Notes: generated by a model not told the origin, from the letters alone. A stretch of 52,621 nucleotides of DNA from a virus (IMGVR_UViG_3300018405_000026:1-52621), one strand, 5' to 3'; positions 2,854 to 52,621 are shown, counted from the first letter of the stretch. Numbers and translations: made by a program.

Positions 2854-3429
2854 TTAAATCAAATCGTCTAAATCTTCATCTAATTCTTCTACTTCGAAAT
2901 CTTCAAAATCTGATTCAGCAGAAGCACGTCCACCCAAGTAATCGCCGTGGCCAAGTGACATTACGTTGTTTAAACCGGCCGTAACCCCTCTATTGCCCGC
3001 AGTGTTATATGCGTAGAAATTCACGGATACGTGAGCAAATACACCTGAGTAGATATCATCTTGACTGTCTGTTTTCTTTTTGTATTTATCTAAAAGACCT
3101 GGCTTTTGAGCGCTGTTCACATTCATAAACATGTGGCCCTCGAACTCCGGATTAGCTTCTAAGTCCAATTCTTCGTCCGCGTCTCGTAACGTAATTTTCA
3201 AGCGGTCACGCTTTACACCTTTTAAATGAGTAGCTTTACCAGCTTCATAAGCAGCGTCAATCGCGCGTTCAATTCGAGCTAAATTCTTTTTATCGTCTTT
3301 AGGAATCAGAATCATGCATGAGTATTTAGGATCTTGACCTTCTTGTATAGCTTTTGGCTCTAGTAAAGCGACGTATGATAAGCGAACATTTTGTAAGACT
3401 ACTTTTGTATTTGATGGTTTGTTTGACAT
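2854..3429 (-). CDS. Single-stranded DNA-binding protein (DUF2815, T7 gp2.5-like)
   Basis: VRLSYV...KYS..LIPKDD and [22 protein letters not shown] motifs, acidic tail, next to the polymerase. Confidence 0.9.
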
Positions 3430-3450
3430 AATAAATTCCTCTTTTCGTTT

Positions 3451-3735
3451 TTATAAGTTTTTAAAATCTTCTTCTGCACTTTTTTCTGACAAGTCTTTAA
3501 GAGTTTTCATGTAAAGTAAATTTTCATCAAAACCTTTAGCGGCGTACCACTTATACAAGTTGCGAGCATAATTTGCGTCAATATCTCGGATATCAATACT
3601 TCTGCTACTTGAGACTGGGTGAGAGAAATATTCTTTCTCTTGCTGTTCTTTCGATACATCAGTGAACTCCGCATAATAAGCTTCGAAGTCTTCAAGTTCC
3701 CAAGCGTCATAGCCCATATCTTCAGCCCAACTCAC
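3451..3735 (-). CDS. Hypothetical protein
   Basis: 94-aa ORF with GAGGT RBS inside the operon. Confidence 0.7.
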   Translation of the reverse strand: MSWAEDMGYDAWELEDFEAYYAEFTDVSKEQQEKEYFSHPVSSSRSIDIRDIDANYARNLYKWYAAKGFDENLLYMKTLKDLSEKSAEEDFKNL

Positions 3736-3752
3736 AGCTACACCTCTTTCCC

Positions 3753-4931
3753 CTATAACTCGGCGAAATCGTCTTGTGCAGACTCCTCACTATTAATTGC
3801 TGGACGTTTGTCTTTAGCAGGAGCTAATACAGGTTTACCTGCTGGCTTGATAATCAAGTCATCTGCAATTTTGGCGAAATTCGCCTTACCGACAACTTTT
3901 TCTAATGCGCCTAAAGCGAGCAATTCTTTTGGCTTCAGAATCTTATCCGCTTCGTAGCCTTCCATCATCAAGCGAACTTCTAGCTCACTTTTATCTGTAA
4001 TTACACGATTGCTGCGACCTTCAACCAATTTCCAACCAGGAATCACTTTACCTTGCAATGCTGAATGCAATGCATAATTCTCAACATCATCTAACCAACT
4101 TTTGATTTCTTTTGCTTGGGCTAAAATCTCTGCTATTTCTTCATCATCTAACAACGCATTTTCCTTAAAGTCGTACTTCTCGATAATTTCAAAGTTCTTC
4201 TCTGCTCTCGGACGCAGCGTAGCCCTAACTGGACTGAAGCGCAGCACATCAGCTTTTAAATTCCATTCGCCAATACCTTCAAAAGCATAAACGGCACGAG
4301 GTGCGACGTAGTTATTCGCCCAGTAAAGCAACTCTTCAACTTCAATCTCAAACGTTGACACATTATCTAATCTCGGCTGAACAATCGTCATGCGGATGCG
4401 ATCAAAATCGTACAGCAAGTCGTAACGATCATAAGCACCTAACGCATATAACATTAATTGCGGATTCTGATAGGCGTCAACTGGGACTCCTTTTCCATAC
4501 TTCAAATCAATCACTTCGATTACGCCGTCGGAGATAATCACGACGTCGGACGTGCCAAAGCTGTCAGGCACCCACTTGCTAATATCGACCTGCACCTCTA
4601 ACTCCATACGCGCATTCTCGTACGCGTTGAAATGTTCAATTACCAAATCTGCATACTGTCCTGTGAAATCTTCCATTTCTTGGTTGTAATACGTGAGATT
4701 GTCAATCACTTCGTCACGCTTCGCTTCGTAATCTTCAAACGGATTAAGGAAGTGCTGAAGCTTAAATTCAGCTAATGTATGCGCGTCAGTCCCTTCTATT
4801 GTGTACGCTGTATCTTTACGCGGAACATCGGTTTCCAACTGTACAATCGGCGGAACGGCCATCCATCGTACAGCACTTGACGGACCAAGATAGGCGTGCT
4901 TCGTCGGACCAAATTCTTCTGCCATAGCCAT
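3753..4931 (-). CDS. Cas4-like PD-(D/E)XK exonuclease (DUF2800)
   Basis: HAYLGPSSA, EGTDAH, FGTSD, VIDLKYGKG, NPQLMLYALG and KLVEGRS motifs. Start moved to the ATG following the upstream stop. Confidence 0.9.
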   Translation of the reverse strand: MAMAEEFGPTKHAYLGPSSAVRWMAVPPIVQLETDVPRKDTAYTIEGTDAHTLAEFKLQHFLNPFEDYEAKRDEVIDNLTYYNQEMEDFTGQYADLVIEHFNAYENARMELEVQVDISKWVPDSFGTSDVVIISDGVIEVIDLKYGKGVPVDAYQNPQLMLYALGAYDRYDLLYDFDRIRMTIVQPRLDNVSTFEIEVEELLYWANNYVAPRAVYAFEGIGEWNLKADVLRFSPVRATLRPRAEKNFEIIEKYDFKENALLDDEEIAEILAQAKEIKSWLDDVENYALHSALQGKVIPGWKLVEGRSNRVITDKSELEVRLMMEGYEADKILKPKELLALGALEKVVGKANFAKIADDLIIKPAGKPVLAPAKDKRPAINSEESAQDDFAEL

Positions 4932-4932
4932 G

Positions 4933-5535
4933 TTAGTTCCCACCTTTTTCAATAAGTAACAAGCCTTCGTAAAACTCCGCGTAGTGTTTCTCGTCCATTT
5001 GACCGAATTTAGCTACATCGAATCGTGCTAATAAAGCTGTTAACTCTGCTTTAACTGCGCCGTTAGCTCTCAAAAGATCACCCATCTTAGTTACGATAGT
5101 AGACTTGTCCACAGGCTCAACATTCTCAACTGGGAAATTAGTTTCAGTTGTCGTTTTTACTTCATCTTGAGCAGCCTCCCACGCAGCTTTGCTAGCGAAC
5201 ACTTGCGCTTCATCCGGAATCTCTTGCCCTTTACGTGAGCTGCCAAAATCTTCGCCTAGTAACCAATACGTCATCTTAGTCGCAATATTATCTTCAACTT
5301 CTTCGGATTCTTCTTTAACGCTGTCCTCAACTTTAATTTCAGAAGCTTTTTCCTCTGGTTTAGGTTCAGCAGCCTTTTCGATGATCTTGTCAACAGTTTT
5401 TTCTATTGTTTTTTCGTCTTTAACCTCGACTACATTGTTCTCGACTTGTTGGCCAACCCCGAAAGATTCAACCAAGCCATCTAACTTCTCTTTCAATTCC
5501 GTTGCGTTATCTGCGATAATTTCAATTTTAAACAT
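4933..5535 (-). CDS. Acidic hypothetical protein preceding DUF2800
   Basis: 200 aa, Glu/Lys-rich linker and a C-terminal helical bundle. AGGAGG RBS. Confidence 0.8.
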   Translation of the reverse strand: MFKIEIIADNATELKEKLDGLVESFGVGQQVENNVVEVKDEKTIEKTVDKIIEKAAEPKPEEKASEIKVEDSVKEESEEVEDNIATKMTYWLLGEDFGSSRKGQEIPDEAQVFASKAAWEAAQDEVKTTTETNFPVENVEPVDKSTIVTKMGDLLRANGAVKAELTALLARFDVAKFGQMDEKHYAEFYEGLLLIEKGGN

Positions 5536-9933: not shown

Positions 9934-9942
9934 GCTCCTTCC

Positions 9943-10179
9943 TTAAACTGATATACTATCGCATTTATGCGACTTCTTACTTAAAAAAATTTCTATTGCT
10001 TCTTCATTAGACAACTGCATAATCTTTGCAATTTCCGCCACTTCTCCTATTGAAAAATCTCCATTGTTTTTCATTTTTCTATAAAAAGTACTTCTGTCTA
10101 TTCCAATAGATTGAGCCAATTCTTGTTGAGAAAAACCTTTTTCAACAATCTTACCTCGCAACTTATTAACGTCCACCAT
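9943..10179 (-). CDS. cro: Cro-like HTH repressor
   Basis: KLRGKIVEKGFSQQELAQSIGIDRSTFYRK, divergent from cI. RBS AAAGGGGG precedes ATG 10179. Confidence 0.85.
   Translation of the reverse strand: MVDVNKLRGKIVEKGFSQQELAQSIGIDRSTFYRKMKNNGDFSIGEVAEIAKIMQLSNEEAIEIFLSKKSHKCDSISV
9959..9972. promoter_or_regulatory. Operator TCGCA-N4-TGCGA (distal, in the 3' end of cro)
   Basis: tcgcatttatgcga palindrome that matches the three intergenic copies. Confidence 0.75.
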
Positions 10180-11902: not shown

Positions 11903-13000
11903 ATGGCTTCTTATACTAAAAGGGGCAAAACATGGACGTATATCGTATCTTACAAAGATAAAAACGGCGAATTTCAAACAGCGCGCAAAGGTGGTTTTCG
12001 CACCAAGCCTGAGGCAGCTGCAGCAGCTAGAGATATTGAAATCGCAATAGCCAAAGGTCATGATCCTAGCGTTAAGAAAAAACTTTTCTCGGACTATTTT
12101 AAAAATTGGATGGAATTATATAAAAAACCAGCAGTAACAGAAGTCACTTACCGTAAATATAAAGTGGCCTACAACAATATTAAAAAATTATTTCCTTACG
12201 AGACACTTGAGGATTTGGACCGTGACACATATCAAAGAGCGCTAAATGAATACGCCAAAACTACGGCTGAATCAACAGTCAAACGCTTAAACAGCTACAT
12301 AAGAGCGTGTTTAGCATACGCCTTAGAAGATAACACCATCTTCCGGGACCCGACGTTTAAAGCGGTAATTTCGGGCAATAATGAACGGGTAGTCGATGAA
12401 GAGGCGAAATTTTTAGAGAGAAAAGATTACGACAAGCTGATGGCCAATATTTCAAAAAGACCTCTGACGGCGTCAAAAATGCTGGTGATTATAGCTGCTC
12501 ACACTGGCGCACGATATGCAGAAATTTTAGGTTTGACGTGGAATGATATTGATTTCGAAGCCAAAACTGTGACCATTAGTAAAACTTGGCTATATAAATT
12601 GAAGCCGCCTGTATTCGGTGAAACTAAGAATAAAAAACGGCGCGTGATACTTGTAAGCGACGAATTGCTCGCCTTTATAAAAGAGATTGAAGCACACCAA
12701 GAGTTAAACGGCTCTAAAATTGATCGCATCATTAACGCACCCTGCTCAAACGAAGCAGTCAATAAATATTTACGCAAAGTGCAAACACAGATAGGCGTGA
12801 CTGAGAAACAAATAACACTACACGGGTTACGACATACACACGCTTCGCTATTGCTTTACGCCGACGTAAACATTATGCTTATAGCAGAACGACTTGGACA
12901 CAAAGACGTGACCGTCACGCAGACCGTCTATTCTCACGTATTAGAAGAAATGCGAAAAAATAAAGAAAATCAATTGATAAATTCTTTGAAAATTTTTTAA
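11903..13000 (+). CDS. int: Tyrosine integrase
   Basis: Arm-binding N-terminus (KGGFRTKPEA), TGARYAE, HGLRHTHAS, LGH and VYSH catalytic motifs. Confidence 0.96.
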   Translation: MASYTKRGKTWTYIVSYKDKNGEFQTARKGGFRTKPEAAAAARDIEIAIAKGHDPSVKKKLFSDYFKNWMELYKKPAVTEVTYRKYKVAYNNIKKLFPYETLEDLDRDTYQRALNEYAKTTAESTVKRLNSYIRACLAYALEDNTIFRDPTFKAVISGNNERVVDEEAKFLERKDYDKLMANISKRPLTASKMLVIIAAHTGARYAEILGLTWNDIDFEAKTVTISKTWLYKLKPPVFGETKNKKRRVILVSDELLAFIKEIEAHQELNGSKIDRIINAPCSNEAVNKYLRKVQTQIGVTEKQITLHGLRHTHASLLLYADVNIMLIAERLGHKDVTVTQTVYSHVLEEMRKNKENQLINSLKIF

Positions 13001-13032
13001 TTTTTATGCCAATTTCAAACATGTCTATGCAG

Positions 13033-13247
13033 TAGCTATCCTTTAGCTTATAAAATAGTTTGCACATATTTTACACAAGTTAAAAATTAATGCTATAATA
13101 GCAAGGTTAGCAGGCTATTGAAATTCCCTTCAGAGGCGTTTTATTAATATTCATAGCAAGTAATAGCAATTAAAAACGTTGATTTGAAAGCTTTTTTAGA
13201 ATTAGCTATACTTTAGCTTTTAAAACATTTTACACATATTTTACACA
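13033..13247. repeat. attP region: 45-bp imperfect direct repeats (13033-13077 and 13203-13247) flanking a tRNA-like core
   Basis: 40/45 identical and 170 bp apart, containing repeated TTTTACACA motifs (another copy near 13329). Directly downstream of int. Confidence 0.75.
13123..13138 (+). other. Putative attP core matching a tRNA 3' end
   Basis: ATT-CCCTT-CAGAGGC-G fits T-loop end, 5-nt T-stem strand, 7-nt acceptor strand and discriminator base. It is a GC-rich island in AT-rich DNA. Confidence 0.6.
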
Positions 13248-18815: not shown

Positions 18816-19144
18816 TGGTTTTTAGAACCTTTCAATTTTGTATGCAAATCAGCCGAGCGTTCGAGAGTGAACCTACTAGCACGGCGTCATTATTTTTATA
18901 TATTTTGCCAAGAGGCAGGGTAAAAGAAATAACACGTTATTCAGTTTTGCATTTACTAGGTGGGTGCCATGATTACGATTCCGATTAGCCGACGAATTAT
19001 TCACATTCCAAATGAAACCCCCACCATTCGTACCATTCGTCCAATTACTGCCGAAGATGGTGGTTAACCAAGTGAAGCTAAAAGGCTTTTTTGTCATCGT
19101 TTGTTCATACACATATTTCTTTTACCCATAAGTTAGTTAGTTAA
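18816..19144 (-). ncRNA. Putative DGR RNA (leader, TR and structured spacer)
   Basis: Interval between the target stop and the RT start. Contains the 14-bp inverted repeat round the TR and hairpins TGCC-tctt-GGCA and GCCG...CGGC. Transcript ends are unknown. Confidence 0.65.
18949..19074 (-). repeat. DGR template repeat (TR)
   Basis: Ungapped 126-nt match to the VR. 34 adenines on the coding strand, including ten AAT codons in the target frame. Confidence 0.95.
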
Positions 19145-20911
19145 TTAATTTTTTGCGGCATACACCAGGCGGGCGCCAGGACTACGATTCCGATAAGCCG
19201 ACGAAATATACACACCCCAAACGAAACCCCCACCACTCGCACCACTCGTCCAATTACCGCCGAAGATGGCGGCTAACCAAGCGGCCGTACTGGCTGCGTT
19301 TTGGTAGAAATGGTCTCCTACCGGAACAGCAGAGTTTCCAAGCGTCTCAGATGGGAAGAATAGCCAGTCAAACGGTTCATTATATGCCATGGCTGATACC
19401 CATCCGGTTGTTTTAGCAAGCGTAATGCCGGCATTTCTATAGCTACCGTCGCCTTTATCATCTGCGAAAGCGTGGTCAGCGACGTACAACTCGTGCAATC
19501 CTTGCGGCTTGATATTCATACCGTCGACCCATTTCCAAATATTCATCCAAAAGTTTTCTTCTCCTCGATACGTTACCGAGCCATTTTCAGCTTTTCCTGA
19601 AGCGTTACCGAGTAAAGCAGTTGCCCCAGTAGGCTCCGCCATATTTGTTGTAGCGTCGTCTGATTTAGTCACGCCCATACCGATTGCGTTTTGAGTATTA
19701 AACGTCCCATACTCAATCGCAAACAACAGTTGAGTTGCTGCAATCGTAGCTGCATAAGAAATGTCCCAGCCACTCCCGCGGTTCTGTGCGACGATTCTAG
19801 CGCCCCCGCGCGTCAATCCTTGAGTCAAACCTGATACCGGTTTAGCGTTAGCGATACTACTTAATTTATCACCAGTTGTCGCGGTGAAATCTCCGCCCTG
19901 GTCATCAATCAAGTTGTAAGCACTCGCAGACACGTCATATAAGCTCCCCTCGTACGCCGATAAGTAAATACGGTTAAGAACCTCACCATTCTTGATAAAG
20001 GCTGGGTGAAGCTTAAATCCGAGTTTAGGAGTATCCGAAACATAGTAGCGTGCTTTTCTTAAATGGTGGCCTTTTCCACCTTCAATTTTTTCAGTTACCA
20101 GAGGTACGACTTTGTAATAAAATTTCGGCTGTTCTACCATCACCTGGACGGGAGTTCCTACTGGATACGTCACACCATTTTTGGTAATCGACTGAGCTAA
20201 AGCTCCGGTTTCGGTGTAGCCTGCGTCTCCTAAATATCCTAAGTTGACGCCGTCGTCCGTCAACATGCAACGCTTACGGCCACCAAACATTTTAAAGCCA
20301 TCGAATGAGGCACCTGGAGTACGATTAACTGCACCCGAGAGACGGGTGAATTTGCTTGCTTTGAAATCAACTTCCAGGCCTAGAATATCATCATCTTTAT
20401 AGCCGACATAAGATTTCAAATCAATGATTTGTGCTTCTAAATCTCTCACATCACCAATCGTTGCGACTGCAGCCGGATCAACTTGAATTGTGACGTTACT
20501 TGAATTTCCGATGGTTGTGACAATTTTAAAATGCGCCCCGCTCGTCGTTTTGCCATTAAATGGTGGCATGAACCCAGCTTGTTGGGCCGTTGTTACAGCA
20601 AATAAGATAATGCCGTCTTGCGGGTCTTTTGCAAACAGTCCGATGGTGCGCATGTAATAACCGACGGTTAGTGACTCGTTGCCGACAGCCCCTTCCACTT
20701 GTACAGCTACTTCGTTAGTGCGTGTGACTTTTGACACCGCCGTGGTTTGTTTGATATTCGCTAATGCTGTAAGGTTTTCTAATTGCGACTCGCTATATGC
20801 TGTTTCCGACACGCGAATTTCTGTAAATTCTACTTTGCTAGAGCCACTCATTAGTTTGGCCATGAGTGCTTGACCTTTCTTCGTGATAACTACTTTTGAA
20901 AATTCTGACAT
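19145..20911 (-). CDS. Tail fibre / receptor-binding protein, DGR target with predicted C-type-lectin (FGE-like) C-terminal fold
   Basis: N-terminal VITKKGQAL tail-fibre anchor. C-terminal YRGEENFWMNIWKWVDG, GGNW and GARL motifs as in Mtd-like targets. Follows the baseplate genes. Confidence 0.9.
   Translation of the reverse strand: MSEFSKVVITKKGQALMAKLMSGSSKVEFTEIRVSETAYSESQLENLTALANIKQTTAVSKVTRTNEVAVQVEGAVGNESLTVGYYMRTIGLFAKDPQDGIILFAVTTAQQAGFMPPFNGKTTSGAHFKIVTTIGNSSNVTIQVDPAAVATIGDVRDLEAQIIDLKSYVGYKDDDILGLEVDFKASKFTRLSGAVNRTPGASFDGFKMFGGRKRCMLTDDGVNLGYLGDAGYTETGALAQSITKNGVTYPVGTPVQVMVEQPKFYYKVVPLVTEKIEGGKGHHLRKARYYVSDTPKLGFKLHPAFIKNGEVLNRIYLSAYEGSLYDVSASAYNLIDDQGGDFTATTGDKLSSIANAKPVSGLTQGLTRGGARIVAQNRGSGWDISYAATIAATQLLFAIEYGTFNTQNAIGMGVTKSDDATTNMAEPTGATALLGNASGKAENGSVTYRGEENFWMNIWKWVDGMNIKPQGLHELYVADHAFADDKGDGSYRNAGITLAKTTGWVSAMAYNEPFDWLFFPSETLGNSAVPVGDHFYQNAASTAAWLAAIFGGNWTSGASGGGFVWGVYISSAYRNRSPGARLVYAAKN
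19158..19283 (-). repeat. DGR variable repeat (VR) at the 3' end of the tail-fibre gene
   Basis: 20 mismatches to the TR, all opposite TR adenines (15 A>G, 4 A>T, 1 A>C by manual count). Confidence 0.95.
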
Positions 20912-42501: not shown

Positions 42502-42711
42502 CTATCCAATTTCATAAGCATATTCCTTTTCTAGTTCTTCAATTAATTTAGGCGCCACAGATTTTAAAGTGGCAAATTGATTTTCGTAAATTTCCAATTC
42601 GTTTTCTTTCTCTGTTAGCTGTTCACGTAAATCTGACACTTCGGTTTTAACTAATTCAATTTGATTTTTGACCATGTTGTACTGATCTACCAGTTCAATA
42701 CCTTTTTGCAA
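42502..42711 (-). CDS. Small coiled-coil protein, first gene of the late operon
   Basis: AGGAGGT RBS with TTG start and a heptad pattern. Confidence 0.6.
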   Translation of the reverse strand: MQKGIELVDQYNMVKNQIELVKTEVSDLREQLTEKENELEIYENQFATLKSVAPKLIEELEKEYAYEIG

Positions 42712-42827
42712 AATGCCACCTCCTTTTTTATTCACTCAAAACAATACCTAGCTACCCCCAGACGAAACCTACTAATGTCCGTCACGCTATCCGCCTTGCC
42801 ACCTCGCTAGGCATTGTTTTCAATAAA

Positions 42828-42943: not shown

Positions 42944-43450
42944 TTCATTTTCATCTATCAAGTCGGTCAAATGCGATATGCCGAATAGGTAGACCGAAAA
43001 CTCTTCGATTGATTTGCCATCATCTCTGCGAATTGTTCGCTCATCCACGCCATGTTGTTTAGCTAACGTGATATTTGTGGGCAATTCTCCACTATCTAGA
43101 TATTTACGCTTAAACACGCTCCATCTTCGGTTAGTTGCTTGTCCGGCGCTTTTGCAATAGCTCTCGTAGCTTTTCAACATCATGTCAACATAGTCCATCA
43201 TTTTAATAGTTTTTGCCTTATATTCAGCCACAGAGTTCACACGGATATCTTTCAAGACGTCATCGTGTAACTTTAGCTCTTCAAGTGAAGCTCTACAATG
43301 ACTTTGAAGCTTTCGGTAATTTACTAATAGATAGCGCGTGTTACGTAATCGCCAATCTTTTTCTTGTTCTTTTTTGAGTTTATTCGTCTTGCTAAATTCT
43401 TTTGAAACTTCCTCAACGATTGATTCTAATATCTCTTTCGGTAAATTCAA
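42923..43450 (-). CDS. Late transcriptional activator (RinA/ArpU-like)
   Basis: RLRNT.YLL.NYR N-terminus, C-terminal HTH LAKQHGVDERTIRRD, last gene before the terminase operon. Confidence 0.8.
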   Translation of the reverse strand: MNLPKEILESIVEEVSKEFSKTNKLKKEQEKDWRLRNTRYLLVNYRKLQSHCRASLEELKLHDDVLKDIRVNSVAEYKAKTIKMMDYVDMMLKSYESYCKSAGQATNRRWSVFKRKYLDSGELPTNITLAKQHGVDERTIRRDDGKSIEEFSVYLFGISHLTDLIDENEMSEMCP

Positions 43451-44811
43451 TTTGATCTGGCCTCCTCAATTTTCGCTTTTACTGCTGCAATCAATTCGTT
43501 CTGTCCTTGGTCTTTCGTTTCCAATCGACGTCTCGCTCGAATATCTTCAGTGCCTTTCACAATGATTCGGTGCATAATGACTGTTTGTTCAGTTTGTCCT
43601 TGTCTGTAAAGTCTAGCCACTGCCTGCTGGTACAGTTCTAAGCTCCACGTCATCGAGAACCACACCATGATATTTCCTCCTTTCTGGAGGTTTAATCCAT
43701 GTCCAGCTGATGCAGGATGTGCTAATAAAATTGGTATCTCGCCTGCATTCCATTTGGCCACATCACCGTCATTGACATCTAAGACCTTTGCTTGCTTGAA
43801 CCTTTTTAGGATTCGGTCGCGGTCGTGCTGGAACCAATAGAATACTAGAATCGGCTTACCTTGGGCTTCTTCGACGATTCGCTCTAAGACGTTTAACTTC
43901 TCGTCGTGTACTTCGATAACTTTTTTATCTTCGTCGTAAATTGCCCCATTAGCAATTTGCTGAAGCTTGCCTGACAGAACTGCTGCATTCGCCGCAACTA
44001 ACTCGTCTTCGCCTAACGACAGCACATAATCACGTTCGAATGTGTCATATTGCTTTTTGCTTTTACCGTCCAGTTCGATTTCAAGGTCATTGACAATTAA
44101 CTCAGGCATATCTAAGTAATCTGCACTTTTCATCGAGATGGCTACGTCTTCGATTTTGTCATAGATTATTTGATCACTGCCCGGAATCAACTTGTAGCTA
44201 TACACTATGTGTCCGTTCATTTTATCCGGTGTGAAGTACTTACGACGGTATTTCGTAATATTATTTTCCAACCGTTCACCTCGGTCAATTAAATACATTT
44301 GGGACCACAGGTCCATTAAGCTGTTCGGCGCAGGCGTCCCAGTCAGTCCAACAAAACGTTTAAACTTAGGTCGAACTTTTCGTAAAGACTTAAACCGTTT
44401 AGATGCAGCCGATTTAAAGCTAGACAACTCATCGACGACCACCATGTCAAACGGCCAATCTTTCTGATAGCGATCAACCAACCACGTCACAACATCAACA
44501 TTGGTGATATAGATATCCGCCTCGATTTGCAAGGCTTCTAATCGCTGCTTAGGACTACCAATCACTTTGGAATAGGTCAAGTTCTGGAGATGGTCCCACT
44601 TTTCGATTTCGTCGCTCCATGTTTGTTTGGCCACATTTAAAGGTGCGATGACTAAAACTTTTCTGATTTGATTGAACCTGAATAAATAGTCAATTGCGGT
44701 TAACGTGGTTAATGTCTTGCCTAATCCCATGTCCTGAAACACGCCCGAATGATTCTTTCCTAAAATCCAATCAACAGAATGGTCTTGGTAACTATGCAAT
44801 TTACATTCCAT
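43447..44811 (-). CDS. SNF2-family SF2 helicase
   Basis: DMGLGKT, VVDELS, LTGTP, HPASAGHGLNLQ and ARLYRQGQ motifs. Confidence 0.95.
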   Translation of the reverse strand: MECKLHSYQDHSVDWILGKNHSGVFQDMGLGKTLTTLTAIDYLFRFNQIRKVLVIAPLNVAKQTWSDEIEKWDHLQNLTYSKVIGSPKQRLEALQIEADIYITNVDVVTWLVDRYQKDWPFDMVVVDELSSFKSAASKRFKSLRKVRPKFKRFVGLTGTPAPNSLMDLWSQMYLIDRGERLENNITKYRRKYFTPDKMNGHIVYSYKLIPGSDQIIYDKIEDVAISMKSADYLDMPELIVNDLEIELDGKSKKQYDTFERDYVLSLGEDELVAANAAVLSGKLQQIANGAIYDEDKKVIEVHDEKLNVLERIVEEAQGKPILVFYWFQHDRDRILKRFKQAKVLDVNDGDVAKWNAGEIPILLAHPASAGHGLNLQKGGNIMVWFSMTWSLELYQQAVARLYRQGQTEQTVIMHRIIVKGTEDIRARRRLETKDQGQNELIAAVKAKIEEARSN

Positions 44812-44844
44812 CGCTAATACGTCCTATCCATTCGTCTACCGCCT
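44797..44844. repeat. 48-bp direct repeat, copy 1 (VRR-NUC stop / SNF2 start)
   Basis: caatttacattccatcgctaatacgtcctatccattcgtctaccgcct, 47/48 identical to 52032-52079. Confidence 0.92.
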
Positions 44845-45082
44845 GCTTCGAATCTAAGATGTAAACCTTAATGCCGTGTTTCTCCATCTCTCTGTGTTCG
44901 GCCATTTGATCTGGTCTTGGTTTTTCACCGGGTCGTTTCAATTCTACAAAATATACATGGCCATTCATGATGGCGATTCTGTCCGGTACGCCTCTTCTAC
45001 CGGGTGACGTGTATTTTCGTGAAAGGCCACCTGCCTGTTTGATTTGTTGGTTGAAATACTTCTCTATATCTTTCTCTAACAT
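44801..45082 (-). CDS. VRR-NUC domain nuclease
   Basis: MLEKDIE, SPGRRGVPDRI and FVELKRPG..PRP.Q motifs. Confidence 0.93.
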   Translation of the reverse strand: MLEKDIEKYFNQQIKQAGGLSRKYTSPGRRGVPDRIAIMNGHVYFVELKRPGEKPRPDQMAEHREMEKHGIKVYILDSKQAVDEWIGRISDGM

Positions 45083-45119
45083 GGCACCTCTCCTAAAAAT
45101 TATTTTATTTTTATTTTTT

Positions 45120-45360
45120 ACGATGGGTTACAATTTTTTTCAACTCATTGCTTCTTCATAGGGGTTAACATGTTTAAACCTGTTTTTACATGTGTATATT
45201 CTATACCCTAAGAGTCTAATTTAGAAAAAATTGTAACTTTGTAACCCATACCCTTTAAACCCTTACTGTTATTAGCTTTACGGGGGTTACAATTTGGTTA
45301 CAAAGTTACAATTCTTCGAGAAAGGTTACAATTCTTGATTTTTAAAATTGTAACCTTTTT
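45120..45360. other. Putative replication origin with GTTACAA/TTGTAAC iterons
   Basis: About eight direct and inverted copies (near 45127, 45231, 45239, 45286, 45297, 45305, 45325, 45348) in AT-rich non-coding DNA directly downstream of the primase-helicase. Confidence 0.75.
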
Positions 45361-45388
45361 TACCGCTTTTCTATAACAATGTTGAAGT

Positions 45389-47803
45389 CTATAAAAAAAT
45401 ATCACTTTCGCTCTGGAGTCCTTCCCAACACCTTACGGGTTTTCCGTCAATTTTGAACACCTTGTTGACAAAGCCTAATTCGGACATTCTTTGACCAAAA
45501 CTATTACGTGATAAAGGCTTATATCCTGAACTACTGCAATACATTTTGTAGTCATCGTATGCAACTTTAACGGGCGTGCTCAAATCTTTTCCAACTTTAC
45601 ATTCTTCATCAATAAACATGGCCACCACATCGTTACCTTGTTCCCATTTAACGACGTCGTCTTTCATGGTTTTCGATTCACTGAACTCGCCGTTTTTAAG
45701 TAGACGTCTTAATCCTTTCATCGCTTCATTAAAGATCCCCGCCAACTCCCCCTGAATAACTTCCAAAGGATACAGATCTTTCACTTCGTTCGTTAGCACT
45801 TTGTCCATTGTTAGAATCATCATACGGCGTTTAAGTCCGCCGCTAAAGTCACGCATAGGAGGTAATTCGTTCATTGCAAACGTTAATTTCGCATAGTTAT
45901 AAAAAGTGATGGGTTCTTTGTTCTTGCGGTCTGCATAAATCGCATCTTCACCCGTTAGCATTTTAAGCGTAGCGCCGTCTGCTAAATATTGGGGCTTCGC
46001 ATCTGTGTCAAAGTTAGCAACCTTACGGTACAAACCAATTTTTGCGAATCGCTCAGTCATCAAGTACTGCAGCGTAACAGCTGAATAATTATCTGAACCA
46101 ATCATCTCGCGTAATAAGTTAATCAACGTCGATTTACCCGTTCCACCTTTACCGTGTATGAACAGCATCTTCTGCACGTCGTAGCTTCGGTAAAAGTTAT
46201 AACCGAACCACTCAAAGATGAACGGTAACATTTCCTCGCCAAGCACCTCTGTGATAAAACCTTTAAACACCGGACAGTCTGCATCAGTGTCAAACTCAAT
46301 GGGGTGTGACGCTCTCGCATGTAAATCAGGATCGAACGTCGTGCTAAACTTATCCCGTTTCATATCATATACACCGTTTTTCAACACAATTTTTGTTAAA
46401 TCGCCATCTTCGAACACAGATTCGCTAAATGTTTGTGCCTTAATGCTGGCAATCGTCTCACTTAACAGTCGAATTTTAGTTTCGGCCGCTAACTTTTTCA
46501 CGGCGATATAGGATTTCAGAAACTCCTCAGAATCAGCAGTCCAGATACCTGTCTGCGCATTATAGCGCAGTAACTCAAAGCCGTCATAAAACAAAGGTAT
46601 CTCCTTAGTAATTTGTTTCGCTAACAGAAACGTGTTGATATCAGGCCCTTGTTTAGTGATTTGGATCCAACTACGGTCATCTTCAACGTTTACGGAATCC
46701 GCTTGTTCATCATCTTCTTCTACACCAAATTCTGCGAAAGCTTCTTGAGCCATTAGGGAGTTCACATCTTCTAATTCGATAACAAAAGCGTGCATCTCCT
46801 TAAATGAAGGTCTTTTAGAGGTAGGTGTCGTCGATTTAACATTATCATCTAGTTCGCCAAATTTGTGAATCCTTACCAGGTCGAACGCGTTAACCAGCAT
46901 GTCCCCAACAGGGTCCGTACCGTGGTGAGAATAGGCAAATTTATCATCATAAATGACTAATCCCCCTGAAGTCGAACCTTCCATATAGGTGTATCGATCT
47001 GGATGACGTGTCTCAGAATAAACGCCTTCCAAGAATGTTTCAATGGCTTCTTTAATCGAATACACACGGTTAAATGCGCCAATCGCACCAGGCTTATCTA
47101 GCGGATCTCCTTGTTTCTTCGCAGCTCTCGCACGGATATTATGGCCTCTTGATGATTCTGGCCAATAACTGCTGTCCGACCAATCTGGGTATTCAGCGAG
47201 TATTTCATCAGGATTACACCACTTGTCATCTTGATAATCGAATAGGTAATCACCATCAAACGAATGACTCGGCCAATACATTAACCGCTCTGCTTGATAG
47301 GTCGTATCGTCAAAGTAATCCATTCCGAACTTGCTGGCTATTTTACGCGCTAAAGGCTCATACTCGTCAACAGTCACAGGTCTAGTTAACGGAATAATAA
47401 ATCGATAACGAGGATGACTACTTGTGTGACTGTGCGTCGTATAAACTGCAATAGCGAACGTGGATAGCAGTTGAATATCATCCCATAAATCCTTATGGCC
47501 ACTATCCGCGTCTAGCGTGACAATACTTCTCGATTGAACATGGTCGGCTTTACGGCGCCCCTGTTTTAGAAAGCCACCAACATATCCGCCGACGTCTTTA
47601 ATACCATCTCGCTTGTCTTTTGGCAGTTTGGCATACTCTGCAGCACTTTCCTGCGTAACGGTCGGACGCTGCAAGCGGTCAAGAAAAGCAGACCAAGCCA
47701 TTGTTTTGTTTTTCCATTTTGTGTCATGTCGACTCGTCCCGGTTGATAAATTAATCTCGCGGTCCACTTTTAAATCTAGCACCATTTTTTCTTGTTGCTT
47801 CAC
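45389..47803 (-). CDS. Primase-helicase (N-terminal primase-like domain, P4/D5-family SF3 helicase)
   Basis: TLDAD, YTTHSH...PRYR and RLMYWPS; helicase GKGGTGKST, KMLTGED and FAMNELP. Confidence 0.92.
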   Translation of the reverse strand: MKQQEKMVLDLKVDREINLSTGTSRHDTKWKNKTMAWSAFLDRLQRPTVTQESAAEYAKLPKDKRDGIKDVGGYVGGFLKQGRRKADHVQSRSIVTLDADSGHKDLWDDIQLLSTFAIAVYTTHSHTSSHPRYRFIIPLTRPVTVDEYEPLARKIASKFGMDYFDDTTYQAERLMYWPSHSFDGDYLFDYQDDKWCNPDEILAEYPDWSDSSYWPESSRGHNIRARAAKKQGDPLDKPGAIGAFNRVYSIKEAIETFLEGVYSETRHPDRYTYMEGSTSGGLVIYDDKFAYSHHGTDPVGDMLVNAFDLVRIHKFGELDDNVKSTTPTSKRPSFKEMHAFVIELEDVNSLMAQEAFAEFGVEEDDEQADSVNVEDDRSWIQITKQGPDINTFLLAKQITKEIPLFYDGFELLRYNAQTGIWTADSEEFLKSYIAVKKLAAETKIRLLSETIASIKAQTFSESVFEDGDLTKIVLKNGVYDMKRDKFSTTFDPDLHARASHPIEFDTDADCPVFKGFITEVLGEEMLPFIFEWFGYNFYRSYDVQKMLFIHGKGGTGKSTLINLLREMIGSDNYSAVTLQYLMTERFAKIGLYRKVANFDTDAKPQYLADGATLKMLTGEDAIYADRKNKEPITFYNYAKLTFAMNELPPMRDFSGGLKRRMMILTMDKVLTNEVKDLYPLEVIQGELAGIFNEAMKGLRRLLKNGEFSESKTMKDDVVKWEQGNDVVAMFIDEECKVGKDLSTPVKVAYDDYKMYCSSSGYKPLSRNSFGQRMSELGFVNKVFKIDGKPVRCWEGLQSESDIFL

Positions 47804-47833
47804 ATCCTCGCCACCTCTACATTTCTAATCTAA

Positions 47834-48097
47834 TCACGGCTGACACAACGCTTTCAGCTCTTGAATTTTATCTTTCAATAACGTCACATAGTCCTTTAGC
47901 GTCAACGTCTCATGTTCCTCTAATAGCTGCTGACGAGCTAAGAACACTAACGCCTGTTCAATCGTCCGGAAATAGCCTAGTACTTTCTGCTTCTCTTTCG
48001 CTTGACCGAACTCATCTTCAATCGCATAAACGTGAATCAGCGTCAGATTGTACTTGTCAGCTTTAATGAAGTACTGATCGTTTATCTCAATGGTCAT
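47834..48097 (-). CDS. Hypothetical phage protein
   Basis: IEINDQY.IKAD.YN..L...LGYFRTIEQAL pattern. Confidence 0.75.
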   Translation of the reverse strand: MTIEINDQYFIKADKYNLTLIHVYAIEDEFGQAKEKQKVLGYFRTIEQALVFLARQQLLEEHETLTLKDYVTLLKDKIQELKALCQP

Positions 48098-48389
48098 TTT
48101 GATTCCCCCATTCAAATTTCAAACCCAATTCACCATGCAATACTTTCTCAATATCTTTTAAACTAAAATAGCCTGCGTTATAAGCCTCCATCATCTCGGC
48201 GTAATAATCCAAATAACGCTCAATTCGCACTTTACCGAATCCGAATTTATCTCGTAGTATTAGCAGCGGAAATAAATTAATAATCTCAGCAGCATTGTCT
48301 GTCGCTTTTTGCTTCATCTTCTCGACTTCTTTAGTCGTCAACGTGACAGGCTTTGACAACAATTGACGCTTTAACTTTTTACGGTTCAT
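48087..48389 (-). CDS. Hypothetical phage protein
   Basis: LRDKFGFGKVRI..Y motif, AGGAGG RBS. Confidence 0.8.
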   Translation of the reverse strand: MNRKKLKRQLLSKPVTLTTKEVEKMKQKATDNAAEIINLFPLLILRDKFGFGKVRIERYLDYYAEMMEAYNAGYFSLKDIEKVLHGELGLKFEWGNQNDH

Positions 48390-48445
48390 CTTCTTTGCCT
48401 CCTGCTTCCTAAATCCAATCTAAGGCGAACATAAGCTCTTACCTC

Positions 48446-48880
48446 CTAAACGCCTGTCGAGCCGAAACCATTTGACCCTCGATCTGAATTAGATAAATCA
48501 CTCACTTCTACTACTTCGAATTTAGGCAATGGCTGAATAATCAGCTGCGCGATACGTTCACCTTTCGCGACCATATAACCGACATCCGATAATTCAGTGT
48601 CAAGCGAATCGCAGATGACTTTAATCTCACCGCGATAATTGGAATCAATCGTGCCTTCTTGAACCCTTAATAATGTTTTACTGGTTAAACCACTTCGACC
48701 TTTCAATCTCCCGTAATAGCCTTCTGGTATTTCTATTGCGATACCTGTCGAGATTAAGCGAGTTGAACCGCTAGGAATAATCTCGGAAATATCTGCATAA
48801 ATATCAAAGCCCGCATCGCTAGGATGCGCTTTGGTTGGCAACTTCGCCGACGCCGTTAACCTTTTCACTTTTAATTGCAT
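48446..48880 (-). CDS. dut: Trimeric dUTPase
   Basis: DAGFD, RSG, GTIDSNYRGE, RIAQLI and RGSNGFGSTG motifs I-V. Confidence 0.96.
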   Translation of the reverse strand: MQLKVKRLTASAKLPTKAHPSDAGFDIYADISEIIPSGSTRLISTGIAIEIPEGYYGRLKGRSGLTSKTLLRVQEGTIDSNYRGEIKVICDSLDTELSDVGYMVAKGERIAQLIIQPLPKFEVVEVSDLSNSDRGSNGFGSTGV

Positions 48881-48892
48881 TTAAGTGCCTCC

Positions 48893-49645
48893 TCATAAAT
48901 CAATTTTCAACTGTTCTTCCCATATCGAAACACGGCCTTCTAAATAATGCGCACTACCGTTGACTGCTTCAGCGATTTCTTGAAAACTCCTACCTTCAGC
49001 GCGCATTTCGACTGCCAGCTGAATTTCAGCTTCTGTATACTTTCGCTTTTTATCGACATATTTAGGACTGTGCGGAATCTTTAAATCGTATAACTTCCGC
49101 CTTATGGCCGCTTCGCTGCGATTCAAGCGAACCGCCATTTCAGATAACGTGTGTGAATATCGACCCACTAACCATTTCAGTTCCGCAATCTCACCGTCCG
49201 TCCAAGGTTTAGAATGGTTAAACTGTCGCAGCGGCATAGCCCTTAACTCGTCCACCCAATCAGGCTCCACACCGAACGCGCGGTGCGGAACTTTACTCCA
49301 ATTGACGCGGCGTTTGTTAACCTCCGCCCACCCCCAAAATTCAACTGGATCTATCATGCGATACTTCCCAATTTTCTTCGAAGGAAAATCCAGATTACGG
49401 TGCCAATATTCGACAGTGGCACGTGGCACATTCAGCGCTTCACAAAAGTCCGTTGTCGTCATAAGCTCCGACGAATCTTTGGATGTTAATCCTAAGCGAT
49501 TGATTTTATTCTGAATCGAACCTTCAGACCGTTTTAAATATCTAGCCATGTGCTTGACCGATCGAAGACCCACCCATCTTGCCAAATAATCTATTTCCTT
49601 TTCCGTCCAAATCTTGGCCAATTCAAGTTGCCTCCTTAAACCCAC
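48893..49645 (-). CDS. Multi-HTH / Myb-like repeat DNA-binding protein
   Basis: Repeated (W/Y)T..EI..L.....MA..L.RS..I units plus a central excisionase-like HTH. Confidence 0.7.
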   Translation of the reverse strand: MGLRRQLELAKIWTEKEIDYLARWVGLRSVKHMARYLKRSEGSIQNKINRLGLTSKDSSELMTTTDFCEALNVPRATVEYWHRNLDFPSKKIGKYRMIDPVEFWGWAEVNKRRVNWSKVPHRAFGVEPDWVDELRAMPLRQFNHSKPWTDGEIAELKWLVGRYSHTLSEMAVRLNRSEAAIRRKLYDLKIPHSPKYVDKKRKYTEAEIQLAVEMRAEGRSFQEIAEAVNGSAHYLEGRVSIWEEQLKIDL

Positions 49646-50232
49646 TTATGTATATTCATAAATTCCATCAACTTGTCACTTTTCTGCATTACATGAACTT
49701 CGCTAAAACCTTCATATTGATTGCTAAGGCTACGAATGAAGTACACGTTTTTAAATTCGCGCGTCAAACTGTCACCGTGTAATATAGCGCCGTTCATACC
49801 TCGAATCGCCATATTAAAAATTAGGAAAGGCAAGCTTCGGTCAGATAACTCTTCCACTTGGTACCAATAATTCCGAGGATTGTACATCCAGAAATTCTCG
49901 CAGTTTAAACGATGTTCATGCCACGCCTGAATCATAATACCGCCATTACCTGCAGCAATTTCATAATAGGTGCGATTGTCACTAACCAATCTCGCCATCA
50001 ACTCACTAAGTGATGGCGGAGTAAAATCTTGTTTTTTATTTTTACGGTCAGCATGTTCATTTTCAAATGCCTCCTGGAACCATTCATAACTCATATCTGT
50101 TTCCAGTTCCAGAAATTTATGAAATGTTTCAACTCTTTTCTTCTCATCAAGCATTAGGCTGAGCAATTTAGCAGGTTGCTTGTAAGTATCATCTACGCCT
50201 AAAATGCCATTAATTTGTTCGCTTGTAAGCAT
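49636..50232 (-). CDS. Truncated N6-adenine DNA methyltransferase-like protein (HsdM-like, SAM-binding half)
   Basis: QDFTP, YEIAAGNGG (motif I) and HGDSL are present. No NPP(Y/F) motif before the stop. Confidence 0.8.
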   Translation of the reverse strand: MLTSEQINGILGVDDTYKQPAKLLSLMLDEKKRVETFHKFLELETDMSYEWFQEAFENEHADRKNKKQDFTPPSLSELMARLVSDNRTYYEIAAGNGGIMIQAWHEHRLNCENFWMYNPRNYWYQVEELSDRSLPFLIFNMAIRGMNGAILHGDSLTREFKNVYFIRSLSNQYEGFSEVHVMQKSDKLMEFMNIHKWV

Positions 50233-52046
50233 TACAGACCTCCTAGCGCATCTTGCAATATTTTGTCATCTTTACGTTCTAACTCTTCAGTGATATGCGA
50301 ATAGACTTTCTGCGTCGTCGCTAAATTGGAATGGCCTAACCGCTTAGAGATACTAATCATTGACACGCCTTTCGCTAATAACACACTCGCATGAGTATGT
50401 CGCAGGGAGTGAGTCGATATCACTTTAATATTTGCCTTTTTACAGCATTTCGCAAGGTAATCATTAATAGTCGGATTTAAGATGTGAGATAAATGTGTCA
50501 ACCAAATTGGCCGTTCCGTCTGCATATCTTTGGTGATAGTCTTAAACAGCTGCATGGTCTGTGGATCTAAACTAACGGTCCTTATCGACGATTTGTTCTT
50601 CGTTTTAGCAAAGCCTCCACCGGCAAGATTTTTATAATCCCACGTTTTATTAATTGAAATTACATTTGATTCGAAATTAAAATCAGACACCGTTAATCCT
50701 AGCGTTTCGCCAAATCTGAAGCCCGTTTTAGCAGTTAAATAAATGAACCAGCTACACACAGTGTTGAGATTTGAGAAGTCACTTCCGTAATCTAAAACTT
50801 TTAGTAGTTCTGTTAACTCTCTTTCGGATATAAATTTCGATTTTTTACGACCATGAGAATTACCAGAAATGACAGCTTTGTAAGTTGGATTTTTCGCAAT
50901 CAACCCTTCATATACCGCATCATTAATCGAAGCTTTAAGCACGTTATGGTAATCGCGTGCAGTCTGAATATGGTAGACCGTGCCCATCTCTGTCAGCATA
51001 TCTTGGTACACTGTACGCGTTAAATCCTTTATCTTTAAATCACCCAACAATCGCACTAAATTACCGTAGGCTGCTTGATAAGCTTGAACTGAAACATCTC
51101 GGATAATACCAACTTTGTATTTATGCACCCACCAACGGAAATAATCAGCGAACTTGGTTTCTTTCGTAATCTCTATATCAATCGGCCCCCATTCCGGACG
51201 ATCATAATAACCTGTCAGCAATCTAATTTTAGTATCATCTGACATTTTACGTTCGGCATGCTTCACGTTGATATCGTTAGCTCGACATACATAGTAGACA
51301 TATTCGGTATTGAATCCTGTAAGTTCTGCTATCTCAGCTGCGTCCTTACCTTCTGCCGCCCATTGACGTAATTCACCAACTCGGTGCGTTAACTTAATTC
51401 TTTTGACGCCATTTACAACACGGTATTTACTATCTTGGCCAAAGCGGTCGCTTTTAATTCCTTCTTTTCGGCAGTAACCTCTAACATAACCTGTGGAATA
51501 TCCAAACTTTTCAGCAATCTCCTTTAAACTAGAACCATCTTCAACCATCTTGGTAATTTCAACACGCTTTAAATGAATACCTCTTGGTTTAAAAGTAAGA
51601 TCGTGCTGTTTGCAATAACCCCGAATGCGCGACTCCTCATAGCCTAGTTCTTCAGCTATTTCCACGGCAGATAGGCCTTTATCAATCAACTGCTTTAATT
51701 CTGCATCTTTCTCGGCTAAACCTCGAACATCTTTAGGTATTTCAAAACCGCCTTCTTTTGCCCATCTGACAACGGTTTGTACAGTAACATCGAATTTTCC
51801 AGCAATTTCGGCGCGCGTCAGCGTCTTAGCGAACTCTTTAATTAATTCGTTACGCTCTTCAACGGATCCGTATTGAATGCTATTCTTTTTACCCGGCTGA
51901 ATTTTCAGCGCTAAACCGTAACGCTTTAATAACCTGTACATTTGTGTTTGACTGATATTAAAATGTTGACAAATTTCAAATCGATCCATCGTTTCAATCT
52001 TCTCTGTCAACTCCTCACGAATAGAATTTGACAATTTACATTCCAT
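50232..52046 (-). CDS. Tyrosine recombinase with five tandem N-terminal HTH units
   Basis: C-terminal FADYF..W core-binding domain, TGFRFGE, KTK, HSLRHTHAS, LGHS and VYSH. Five N-terminal EI(A/C)..(F/L)G-type helix-turn-helix repeats. Confidence 0.9.
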   Translation of the reverse strand: MECKLSNSIREELTEKIETMDRFEICQHFNISQTQMYRLLKRYGLALKIQPGKKNSIQYGSVEERNELIKEFAKTLTRAEIAGKFDVTVQTVVRWAKEGGFEIPKDVRGLAEKDAELKQLIDKGLSAVEIAEELGYEESRIRGYCKQHDLTFKPRGIHLKRVEITKMVEDGSSLKEIAEKFGYSTGYVRGYCRKEGIKSDRFGQDSKYRVVNGVKRIKLTHRVGELRQWAAEGKDAAEIAELTGFNTEYVYYVCRANDINVKHAERKMSDDTKIRLLTGYYDRPEWGPIDIEITKETKFADYFRWWVHKYKVGIIRDVSVQAYQAAYGNLVRLLGDLKIKDLTRTVYQDMLTEMGTVYHIQTARDYHNVLKASINDAVYEGLIAKNPTYKAVISGNSHGRKKSKFISERELTELLKVLDYGSDFSNLNTVCSWFIYLTAKTGFRFGETLGLTVSDFNFESNVISINKTWDYKNLAGGGFAKTKNKSSIRTVSLDPQTMQLFKTITKDMQTERPIWLTHLSHILNPTINDYLAKCCKKANIKVISTHSLRHTHASVLLAKGVSMISISKRLGHSNLATTQKVYSHITEELERKDDKILQDALGGL

Positions 52047-52079
52047 CGCTAATACGTCCTATCCATTCATCTACCGCCT
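52032..52079. repeat. 48-bp direct repeat, copy 2 (DUF3310-like stop / recombinase start)
   Basis: Both upstream proteins end AVDEWIGRISDGM and both downstream proteins begin MECKL. Confidence 0.92.
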
Positions 52080-52302
52080 CTTTCAAATGACGAATTTCAT
52101 ATTTCTCTAAGCGATTCAACACTTCAATACCTTTTTGTAGGTCAATCAGACCATTCTTTGCATGGTATCGGCGAATATAGCGTTCAGCTACACAGCGCAT
52201 GACATCTCGAAAGACTTCAAACGGCAGCCGTTGATACCACTCTTCAAATAGGTCTTCACCTAATGCATTTAAATAGTGCATTGGATTAATTTCATTCCGC
52301 AT
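52036..52302 (-). CDS. DUF3310-like protein
   Basis: INP.HY...RYI.RY..KNG..DL.K....L.RL pattern. Confidence 0.75.
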   Translation of the reverse strand: MRNEINPMHYLNALGEDLFEEWYQRLPFEVFRDVMRCVAERYIRRYHAKNGLIDLQKGIEVLNRLEKYEIRHLKEAVDEWIGRISDGM

Positions 52303-52303
52303 C

Positions 52304-52495
52304 CTACCAACCCATCCTCTCAATCAAATTTTTATAAACTAAAATCTCCTCTTGGATCAAACGCTTTTGATTTACCAGCGTTGTAACTACGTACGGATAC
52401 TTAGGAGAGCAGAAGAAGATTGCCCCGTCTAACTCTTTAATATTGAGCTGCGCACGTCTCAGACGGCTTAACGTATCAGTTTTATTCGTTTTCAT
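52304..52495 (-). CDS. Hypothetical protein
   Basis: 63 aa with GGAGGTGG RBS. Confidence 0.65.
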   Translation of the reverse strand: MKTNKTDTLSRLRRAQLNIKELDGAIFFCSPKYPYVVTTLVNQKRLIQEEILVYKNLIERMGW

Positions 52496-52621
52496 TCTGC
52501 CACCTCCAGTAACTGTTCTTTCAAAATTCTTCTTGATAACGTTCCAGTAGTACTAATATGCAACCTTGAAATTCCGTTGTTTTTCCCCAAAACCGCATTA
52601 GCATAATCGTGCAAATCATCA
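52492..52621 (-). CDS. 3' part of a hypothetical protein entering from the window end
   Basis: Open frame DDLHDYANAVLGKN...KEQLLEVAE ending in an ATGA overlap. Confidence 0.55.
   Translation of the reverse strand, partial: DDLHDYANAVLGKNNGISRLHISTTGTLSRRILKEQLLEVAE

Follow-up and report, generated by a model that had tools for sequence, protein, structure and literature searches.

The 52,621-nucleotide viral record IMGVR_UViG_3300018405_000026 (below, the window, which is the whole record; completeness rating 100%) contains a 48-bp direct repeat, with one copy at positions 44797-44844 (copy A) and the other at 52032-52079 (copy B), that brackets 7.2 kb of genes. Judged from gene order and protein ends in related phages, copy A is the phage's ordinary native junction between the genes of a VRR-NUC nuclease and an SNF2-type helicase, and copy B is derived and foreign to its context. 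We consider it likely that copy B is a scar of illegitimate recombination which makes the bracketed block unstable, and that a programmed nested replicon, raised as a possibility in an earlier reading made from the sequence alone (the sequence-only reading), is unsupported.

The two copies of the repeat

The two copies are identical at 47 of 48 bases, the sole mismatch (44834 G vs. 52069 A) being synonymous in an Asp codon. In a repeat scan of the window, the direct repeat extends to 57 nt (44797-44853 and 52032-52088), of which 53 (93%) are identical, and the start-to-start spacing is 7235 bp. The 37-nt exact run within the copies is the longest exact direct repeat of the window, whereas the longest exact repeat in 100 first-order Markov simulations was 15.3 nt on average and 18 nt at most. 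Thus, the repeat is not a product of chance.

The genes of the region all lie on the minus strand and follow one another, in the order of transcription, as a 63-aa open reading frame (ORF), a DUF3310-like gene (D), copy B, a multi-helix-turn-helix tyrosine recombinase gene (INT), a short methyltransferase (MTase)-like gene (MT), a multi-helix-turn-helix gene (HTH), a dUTPase gene, two small ORFs, a primase-helicase gene (PRI), a 306-nt gap, the VRR-NUC gene (V), copy A and the SNF2 gene (S). D (95 aa) and V (93 aa) share the C-terminal end AVDEWIGRISDGM, INT (604 aa) and S (454 aa) share the N-terminus MECKL, and stop and start overlap by 11 nt at both the D/INT and the V/S junction. The sequence-only reading had described the 47/48 identity at these positions, a stop/ribosome-binding-site/start junction within each copy with common protein ends, and the absence of clear dyad symmetry, all of which are borne out by the sequence, the repeat scan and the ORFs. 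No inverted repeat of at least 5 nt was found within the 48-mer, which folds no better than shuffled sequences. Promoter and terminator scans stayed at the level of shuffles.

Copy A as the native junction

The VRR-NUC proteins of nine relatives (68-87% identity) all end in related tails, the closest of which, in four of the nine, read AVDEWIGRFKNGM, AVDKWIGRFKNEM, AGDKWIGRFKNGM and AVDEWIGRFSDGV, and the distant VRR-NUC relatives of phiFL4A and CWou-2020b align within the same C-terminal helix. On the SNF2 side, the closest related loci start with MKCELHPYQ or MKATLHPYQ vs. MECKLHSYQ in the window, and the 11-nt stop/start overlap between VRR-NUC and SNF2 is also present in loci L053 and L058. 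V adjoins S in 74 of the 80 related viral loci, and in five of the six exceptions the locus itself begins at or within SNF2. The order kept in relatives is PolA, about 1 kb, PRI, V and S, and the same order is annotated in phiFL4A and CWou-2020b.

On this comparative evidence, the run from primase through origin-like gap and VRR-NUC to SNF2 is ancestral in these phages and forms a single contiguous module. Copy A is therefore an ordinary junction rather than an attachment site. D, INT, MT, HTH and the two small ORFs, on the other hand, occur in none of the 80 loci. This distribution does not bear out the nested excisable replicon or replication switch suggested by the sequence-only reading. 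Relatives do not show the whole block as an insertion into an empty site; compared with them, only D, INT, MT, HTH, the dUTPase gene and the small ORFs are extra.

Copy B as a derived junction

The relatives of D and INT end and start differently from the window at copy B. The D relatives P0005 (95% identity) and P0006 end in ...RHLKEAEKIES and P0007 ends in ...RHLEEAT, whereas D of the window reads ...RHLKEA and then VDEWIGRISDGM. P0001, the closest relative of INT (96% identity), starts with MSNSIREEL, whereas INT of the window reads MECKL and then SNSIREEL; P0001 thus begins at the position of codon 5 (TTG) of the window gene. Sequencing runs were compared as Logan contigs (k=31 assembly), those used here being X3, X4, X5 and X6, four of the 24 listed runs. 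Contig record 30 of X6 (2490 nt) spans the stretch between the D tail and the start of HTH, INT and MT included, with 10 letters fewer inside 52048-52073. As far as these contigs and protein ends tell, an arrangement of D, INT, MT and HTH without the repeat exists. The native D tails, the start of P0001 and the X6 contig therefore argue that about 42 nt of the V/S junction overwrote about 33 nt of the D/INT junction.

The sequence-only reading had pointed to related phages as a check on the block, and had held that relatives keeping the block without the repeat would speak against excision. Relatives carry D and the recombinase with different native ends (P0001, P0005, P0006); this covers the D/recombinase part of such an arrangement, where both genes have their native ends. 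The alternative offered in the same reading, that the repeat is the scar of a gene-boundary recombination, has held up, with copy A native, copy B derived and the pre-event ends present in relatives.

Breakpoints and the origin of copy B

On the D side, native D relatives read ...KEA followed by E, and VRR-NUC reads ...KQA followed by V; the Ala codon is GCG in both genes, with AG before it and G after it (52074-52079 and 44839-44844). The other breakpoint lies at the TTG which is codon 5 of INT in the window and the start position of P0001, and which would be the start of the recombinase in relatives. A weak joint in X6 ends at 52075 with a side length of 24, a side length below 30 being under the advised threshold. 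The breakpoints appear to lie on microhomologies, 5-6 bases of AGGCG(G) and the TTG, and such tiny homologies would be the signature of illegitimate, microhomology-guided recombination.

An ectopic copy of the V/S junction, about 42 nt long, would thus have been pasted over about 33 nt between D and a pre-existing recombinase-MTase-like cassette. This may have occurred by a double template switch, or by two single events, namely, a microhomology deletion to give D-J-SNF2 (J denoting the repeat) and, after it, an unequal crossover with a full-length genome. Both routes fit and are indistinguishable here. The single, synonymous change in 48 nt suggests that copy B is recent. Its presence was presumably tolerated: with the stop, the Shine-Dalgarno-like AGGA and the ATG that came along in the copied piece, the flanking genes stay whole.

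Judged from its sequence, relative L125 (an IMG/VR contig, HTH 86% identical) underwent the same kind of event nearby. At 9755-10060 of this contig, D keeps only its first ~10 codons, which run into the last ~18 codons of MT at a ATGCNGAA microhomology. The fusion matches window positions 52295-52323 and 49636-49689 and deletes D, INT and MT; HTH is then followed directly by the end of the 93-aa ORF, without PRI, V and S.

An adaptive explanation was also considered, in which the copy was fixed for its ATG, its upstream AGGA and a stop/start coupling that replaced the TTG start, with the repeat as a side effect. The start of P0001 corresponds to TTG codon 5 of the window gene, copy B supplies an ATG in an 11-nt overlap with the stop of D and, 10 nt upstream, an AGGA, and the same arrangement is found at SNF2 and recurs in L053 and L058. 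However, this explanation depends on the protein-level start of P0001, and a neutral scar accounts for the same facts. We regard it as unlikely; it shares the origin that we propose for copy B and differs only in why the copy persisted.

Possible deletion across the repeat

A crossover between the two copies would remove 7235 bp and keep every reading frame, a geometry described in the sequence-only reading and confirmed by the ORFs. In one of the four runs, the independent metagenome X5, contig record 19 (727 nt, depth 4.4) joins 44797 to 52033 and skips exactly 7235 nt. Its D side of 476 nt has 3 differences from the window (99.4% identity), its SNF2 side of 207 nt has 23 (89%), and 36 letters fit both sides. 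Going by this contig, a D-J-S molecule very probably exists in a close relative. Since the D gene of the contig has the derived tail, the contig would belong to the same lineage as the window and would not be an ancestral empty site. It is one step from the window form, either as a crossover product or as an intermediate toward copy B. Thus, one of the two junctions predicted in the sequence-only reading, DUF3310-like to SNF2, was found in one X5 contig, whereas the circle junction (VRR-NUC to recombinase) was not seen in the contigs.

The 37 bp of perfect identity exceeds the minimal RecA pairing segment of 31-34 bp quoted by De Paepe et al. (2014, PMC3945230). The same paper and that of Martinsohn et al. 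(2008, PMC2327257) state that phage annealases act on short and diverged homology, and Lopes et al. (2010) ascribe annealing activity in vivo to Gp2.5-like proteins of temperate phages. Host RecA, or an exonuclease/annealase pair of the phage, could therefore recombine the copies through their 37-bp identity; in the window, the DUF2800 exonuclease and the Enc34/Gp2.5-like single-stranded-DNA-binding protein could anneal them. An occasional crossover would lead to the 7235-bp deletion, in which the sole primase-helicase is lost together with the origin-like region, and both would leave on a 7.2-kb circle that exists at least transiently. Because the deletion product is without primase and origin-like region, it should be defective unless complemented. 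The present-day effect of the repeat is most likely passive, i.e., accidental deletion rather than a built-in excision switch.

Several points weigh against this account of copy B and its effect. The microhomologies are read from protein ends and from the X6 joint with its side length of 24. Besides recency, selection or continuing gene conversion could account for the near-perfect identity of the copies. The X5 contig was assembled at k=31 with a depth of ~4, so that the 36-mer common to both sides may, though improbably, have caused a mis-join; its SNF2 side is only 89% identical, so it derives from a relative rather than from this phage's own population. X5 also contains contigs of INT, of MT/HTH and of part of the primase gene. 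Finally, X3 and X4 carry no linkage information, their contigs breaking off within the repeat as a k=31 assembly predicts.

Coverage in the runs is read with the same care. Positions 45052-45472 are uncovered in X5 and VRR-NUC is little covered, with which absence and divergence below 85% are both compatible. In X3, the SNF2-to-portal contig has a depth of 15.8 vs. 8-11.6 for the block and D; since D lies outside the block and yet is also low, this difference is no sign of excision. In X6, a contig of INT and MT has a depth of 9.7 vs. 72-87 for its neighbours, and the joint with a side of 24 runs from 49628 to 52075, with a GAGGC pentamer at both of its edges (52075-52079 and 49630-49634). Since contig depth cannot rank genes and a side of 24 is under 30, this gives only a hint of a commoner X6 relative in which D adjoins HTH, without INT and MT.

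The X3 and X4 contigs also bear on whether the repeat is an assembly artefact, either a mis-join of two molecules sharing 37-48 nt or a chimeric copy B. The source is a metagenome assembly, and the k=31 contigs of X3 and X4 are silent on which arms are linked across the repeat. However, both boundaries of copy B (D body to repeat and repeat to INT) are present in these runs (records 7, 8 and 16) with zero differences, and since relatives keep VRR-NUC linked to SNF2, the remaining pairing is D-J-INT. As a general point, ordinary reads are longer than a 48-nt repeat. An artefact is therefore hardly credible.

A further explanation is that the repeat has been retained as a means for the phage to divide, by homologous recombination, into a self-replicating circle of 7.2 kb and a remainder of 45.4 kb, the possible benefits being plasmid-like carriage, control of early-gene copy number or the production of dependent genomes. 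The crossover breaks no reading frame, the only primase-helicase and the iteron-like gap are both inside the block, the exact D-J-SNF2 join occurs in one independent contig, and the copies are still 47/48 identical. However, half of the supposed element is ordinary phage backbone, in that the primase-gap-VRR-NUC-SNF2 order is ancestral (74/80 loci), and the primase-helicase and iteron-like motifs of the block are the phage's own and only set. Close relatives are without copy B, so the arrangement is young and not conserved. The 45.4-kb remainder would have no recognisable primase or origin (outside the block, no other primase or initiator was recognised in the genome), no circle junction was seen, and neither the block among plasmids nor the region 43400-52621 among phages gave a megablast match. 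We give a repeat retained for such splitting only a slim chance. That the switch works today, with the exonuclease/annealase or the second recombinase regularly splitting the genome into a natural 'dv' plasmid of 7.2 kb and a dependent, packaging-competent genome of 45.4 kb, is highly unlikely; if it were true, the D-J-SNF2 contig of X5 would be the footprint of the 45.4-kb form.

The recombinase beside copy B

INT is a second tyrosine recombinase, since an ordinary lysogeny integrase is present at 11903-13000, and its proximity to copy B raises the question whether this 604-aa enzyme integrated an element whose attL and attR are the two copies. Integrase genes often adjoin attP. The recombinase gene directly abuts copy B, its Phage_integrase domain is intact (profile positions 2-170 of 172), and an identical segment (47/48, 37 nt exact) stands on both sides of a block with its own replication genes. 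However, the 48-mer has no inverted half-sites, and it consists of nothing but the coding sequence at the end of one phage gene and at the start of another. The site also does not travel with the recombinase: P0001 starts without MECK, and its contig differs and is shorter across copy B. More distant recombinase relatives lie in the trio of MTase, recombinase and D5-like regulator of Listeria phage B025, with no VRR-NUC or SNF2 nearby. Exact copies elsewhere were not found, with zero matches of the 37-mer in viral contigs and of the 31-mer in genome and metagenome contigs. With no dyad symmetry in the repeat and no association between it and the recombinase in relatives, an attachment site is in our view most improbable.

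In its catalytic half, INT shares 43-47% identity with 'second integrases' from phages of Enterococcus and Listeria, including 43% with gp43 of B025. According to the record annotation of B025 (L126, 5262-7623), gp43 lies between the MTase gp42 and the D5-like regulator gp44, far from the true int/attP. Relatives of INT in viral contigs are ~35%-identical catalytic halves only (40 loci), which are uninformative on context. The same three kinds of protein are thus adjacent in B025 and in the window, in both apart from the true lysogeny integrase, whereas the order is INT-MT-HTH here and INT has a multi-helix-turn-helix extension of ~290 aa. Given the B025 trio, the lack of a dyad and the absence of the repeat beside INT in relatives, INT, MT and HTH look like a recurrent three-gene early module and not the excision machinery of this block.

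Gene content of the phage

The window is a complete temperate siphophage of the type with exonuclease, Gp2.5-like single-stranded-DNA-binding protein, PolA, primase-helicase, VRR-NUC and SNF2; it encodes a family A polymerase in addition to the features collected in Table 1.

Table 1 Positions of the repeat copies, the bracketed genes and other features of the window
Feature	Position	Strand	Basis or remark
SNF2-type helicase (S), 454 aa, native start	43447..44811	-	Domain match and relatives
Copy A (J_A)	44797..44844	-	Last 13 VRR-NUC codons and stop, 11-nt overlap with first 5 SNF2 codons; weaker similarity to 44853
VRR-NUC nuclease (V), 93 aa, native tail	44801..45082	-	PHROGs and relatives
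Iteron-like candidate origin, non-coding gap	45083..45388	.	GGTTACAATT-type motifs, about ten, in both orientations; relatives have a gap here too
Primase-helicase (PRI), 804 aa	45389..47803	-	D5_N, DUF5906, Pox_D5; phrog_256/9765; only one found in the genome
Two small ORFs, 100 aa and 93 aa	47834..48389	-	93-aa ORF matches phrog_154 'replication initiation protein'
dUTPase	48446..48880	-	Domain match
Multi-helix-turn-helix protein (HTH), 250 aa	48893..49645	-	phrog_323 'transcriptional regulator, D5-like'
Short MTase-like protein (MT), 198 aa	49636..50232	-	phrog_1071, near full-length member
Multi-helix-turn-helix tyrosine recombinase (INT), 604 aa	50232..52046	-	Phage_integrase and several helix-turn-helix domains; residues 1-4 (MECK) and ATG from SNF2
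Copy B (J_B)	52032..52079	-	Replaces native tail and stop of the DUF3310-like gene, spacer and recombinase gene start; weaker similarity to 52088
DUF3310-like protein (D; sub-threshold), 95 aa	52036..52323	-	Last 12 residues from VRR-NUC
Putative microhomology at D-side breakpoint	52074..52079	-	AGGCGG on coding strand, same as 44839-44844; read from protein ends
Candidate recombination pair	2854..4952	-	DUF2800 PD-(D/E)XK exonuclease at 3753-4952; Enc34/Gp2.5-like single-stranded-DNA-binding protein at 2854-3429; phiFL4A annotation
Lysogeny integrase with arm-binding domain	11903..13000	+	Adjoins CI/LexA-like repressor at 10366-11055

The gene identities given in the sequence-only reading stand for the recombinase with its helix-turn-helix domains, the dUTPase, the primase-helicase and SNF2, and are less firm for two others. 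The VRR-NUC match is just under the Pfam cut-off (22.0 bits vs. 23.8), although clear in PHROGs (phrog_93, 2.5e-32). The name 'DUF3310' is sub-threshold, in that D has no Pfam match at E<=0.01 and its 144-aa relative P0006 scores 20 bits vs. a cut-off of 24. The supposed 'MTase fragment' is, on the contrary, nearly full-length in a family of short phage proteins (profile positions 3-198 of 223 in phrog_1071, 1.1e-83). The label 'iteron' was fair for the motifs of the primase/VRR-NUC gap, which also contains a 21-nt inverted pair (45226-45246 and 45296-45316).

For HTH, a GGAGG at 49631-49635 suggests that the true start is the TTG at 49619-49621. The HTH protein and INT have a weak, repeat-like similarity by BLASTP (E 0.025). 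D of the window is a short form of 95 aa, whereas P0006 to P0008 (142-162 aa) have ~60-75 aa extra at the N-terminus, so the D gene itself is mosaic. No D relative was confirmed in metagenome, genome or viral contigs, which gave pattern matches only.

Two longer direct repeats lie elsewhere in the window, one of 124 nt (85% identity, spacing 209) at 18949-19281 and one of 66 nt (79%, spacing 170) at 13012-13247, the latter directly downstream of the lysogeny integrase gene. At 42726-42827, beside a 77-aa ORF (42502-42735), 100 nt are swapped for 8 other letters in contigs of X5 and X6. In L125, the stretch 9182-9973 has matches to window positions 1-135 and 52295-52495, in the same order and ~460 nt apart. 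The layout of this stretch supports the two ends of the window lying next to each other in a circular or permuted genome, perhaps separated by variable small genes over a few hundred bases.

Comparison with known systems

A gene-boundary model of phage mosaicism is reportedly due to Hendrix and colleagues. The mosaic joints of temperate phages described by Martinsohn et al. (2008, PMC2327257) and De Paepe et al. (2014, PMC3945230) resemble the present case in having a pair of breakpoints at gene borders with tiny homologies. The relatives of the window likewise change identity at the same borders, as seen in the X5 contig (99.4% vs. 89%) and in the D/MT fusion of L125. The difference is that here a short stretch was apparently copied within the genome, so that 7.2 kb of essential genes now lie between direct repeats of 48 bp, rather than a plain A-to-B splice having been made.

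Repeat-mediated deletion by single-strand annealing or RecA is treated in PMC10868807. The 37 bp of perfect identity, the phage exonuclease with its Gp2.5-like protein and the one contig with the exact one-copy product match this process, whereas the product here would be without the primase and the origin-like region. Work on direct-repeat deletion in phage T7 is said to offer a parallel, for which a literature search returned nothing relevant.

Satellites of the PICI/SaPI type (phage-inducible chromosomal islands and Staphylococcus aureus pathogenicity islands) are islands of integrase, regulator, primase and origin flanked by attL and attR. The block resembles them in its integrase-like gene at one end, its helix-turn-helix regulators, D5-type primase-helicase and iteron-like region, and in identical flanks that restore the flanking genes. 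It differs in that the repeat has no dyad and is not tied to the recombinase in relatives, and in that primase, origin-like region and VRR-NUC would be ancestral backbone contiguous with SNF2. Plasmids of the lambda-dv type are origin-bearing circles cut from a phage by rare recombination. The predicted 7.2-kb circle with replication genes and an origin-like region is similar, whereas no such circle was observed here, and it would be generated by a ready-made repeat.

Implications

The case is a well-documented instance of a known process, i.e., mosaicism by illegitimate recombination together with repeat-mediated deletion, and not a novel type of element. What sets it apart is that a short, templated copy from within the genome brackets a replication module. 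It offers a clean, datable example of how mosaics are made, with the 'before' state in close relatives and the likely 'after' state, the precise deletion, in another sample. We note that a recombinase next to a repeat is not to be read as an excision system unless relatives have been checked. Such scars are also not inert, as the only primase-helicase and the candidate origin of this phage now lie between direct repeats of recombination length.

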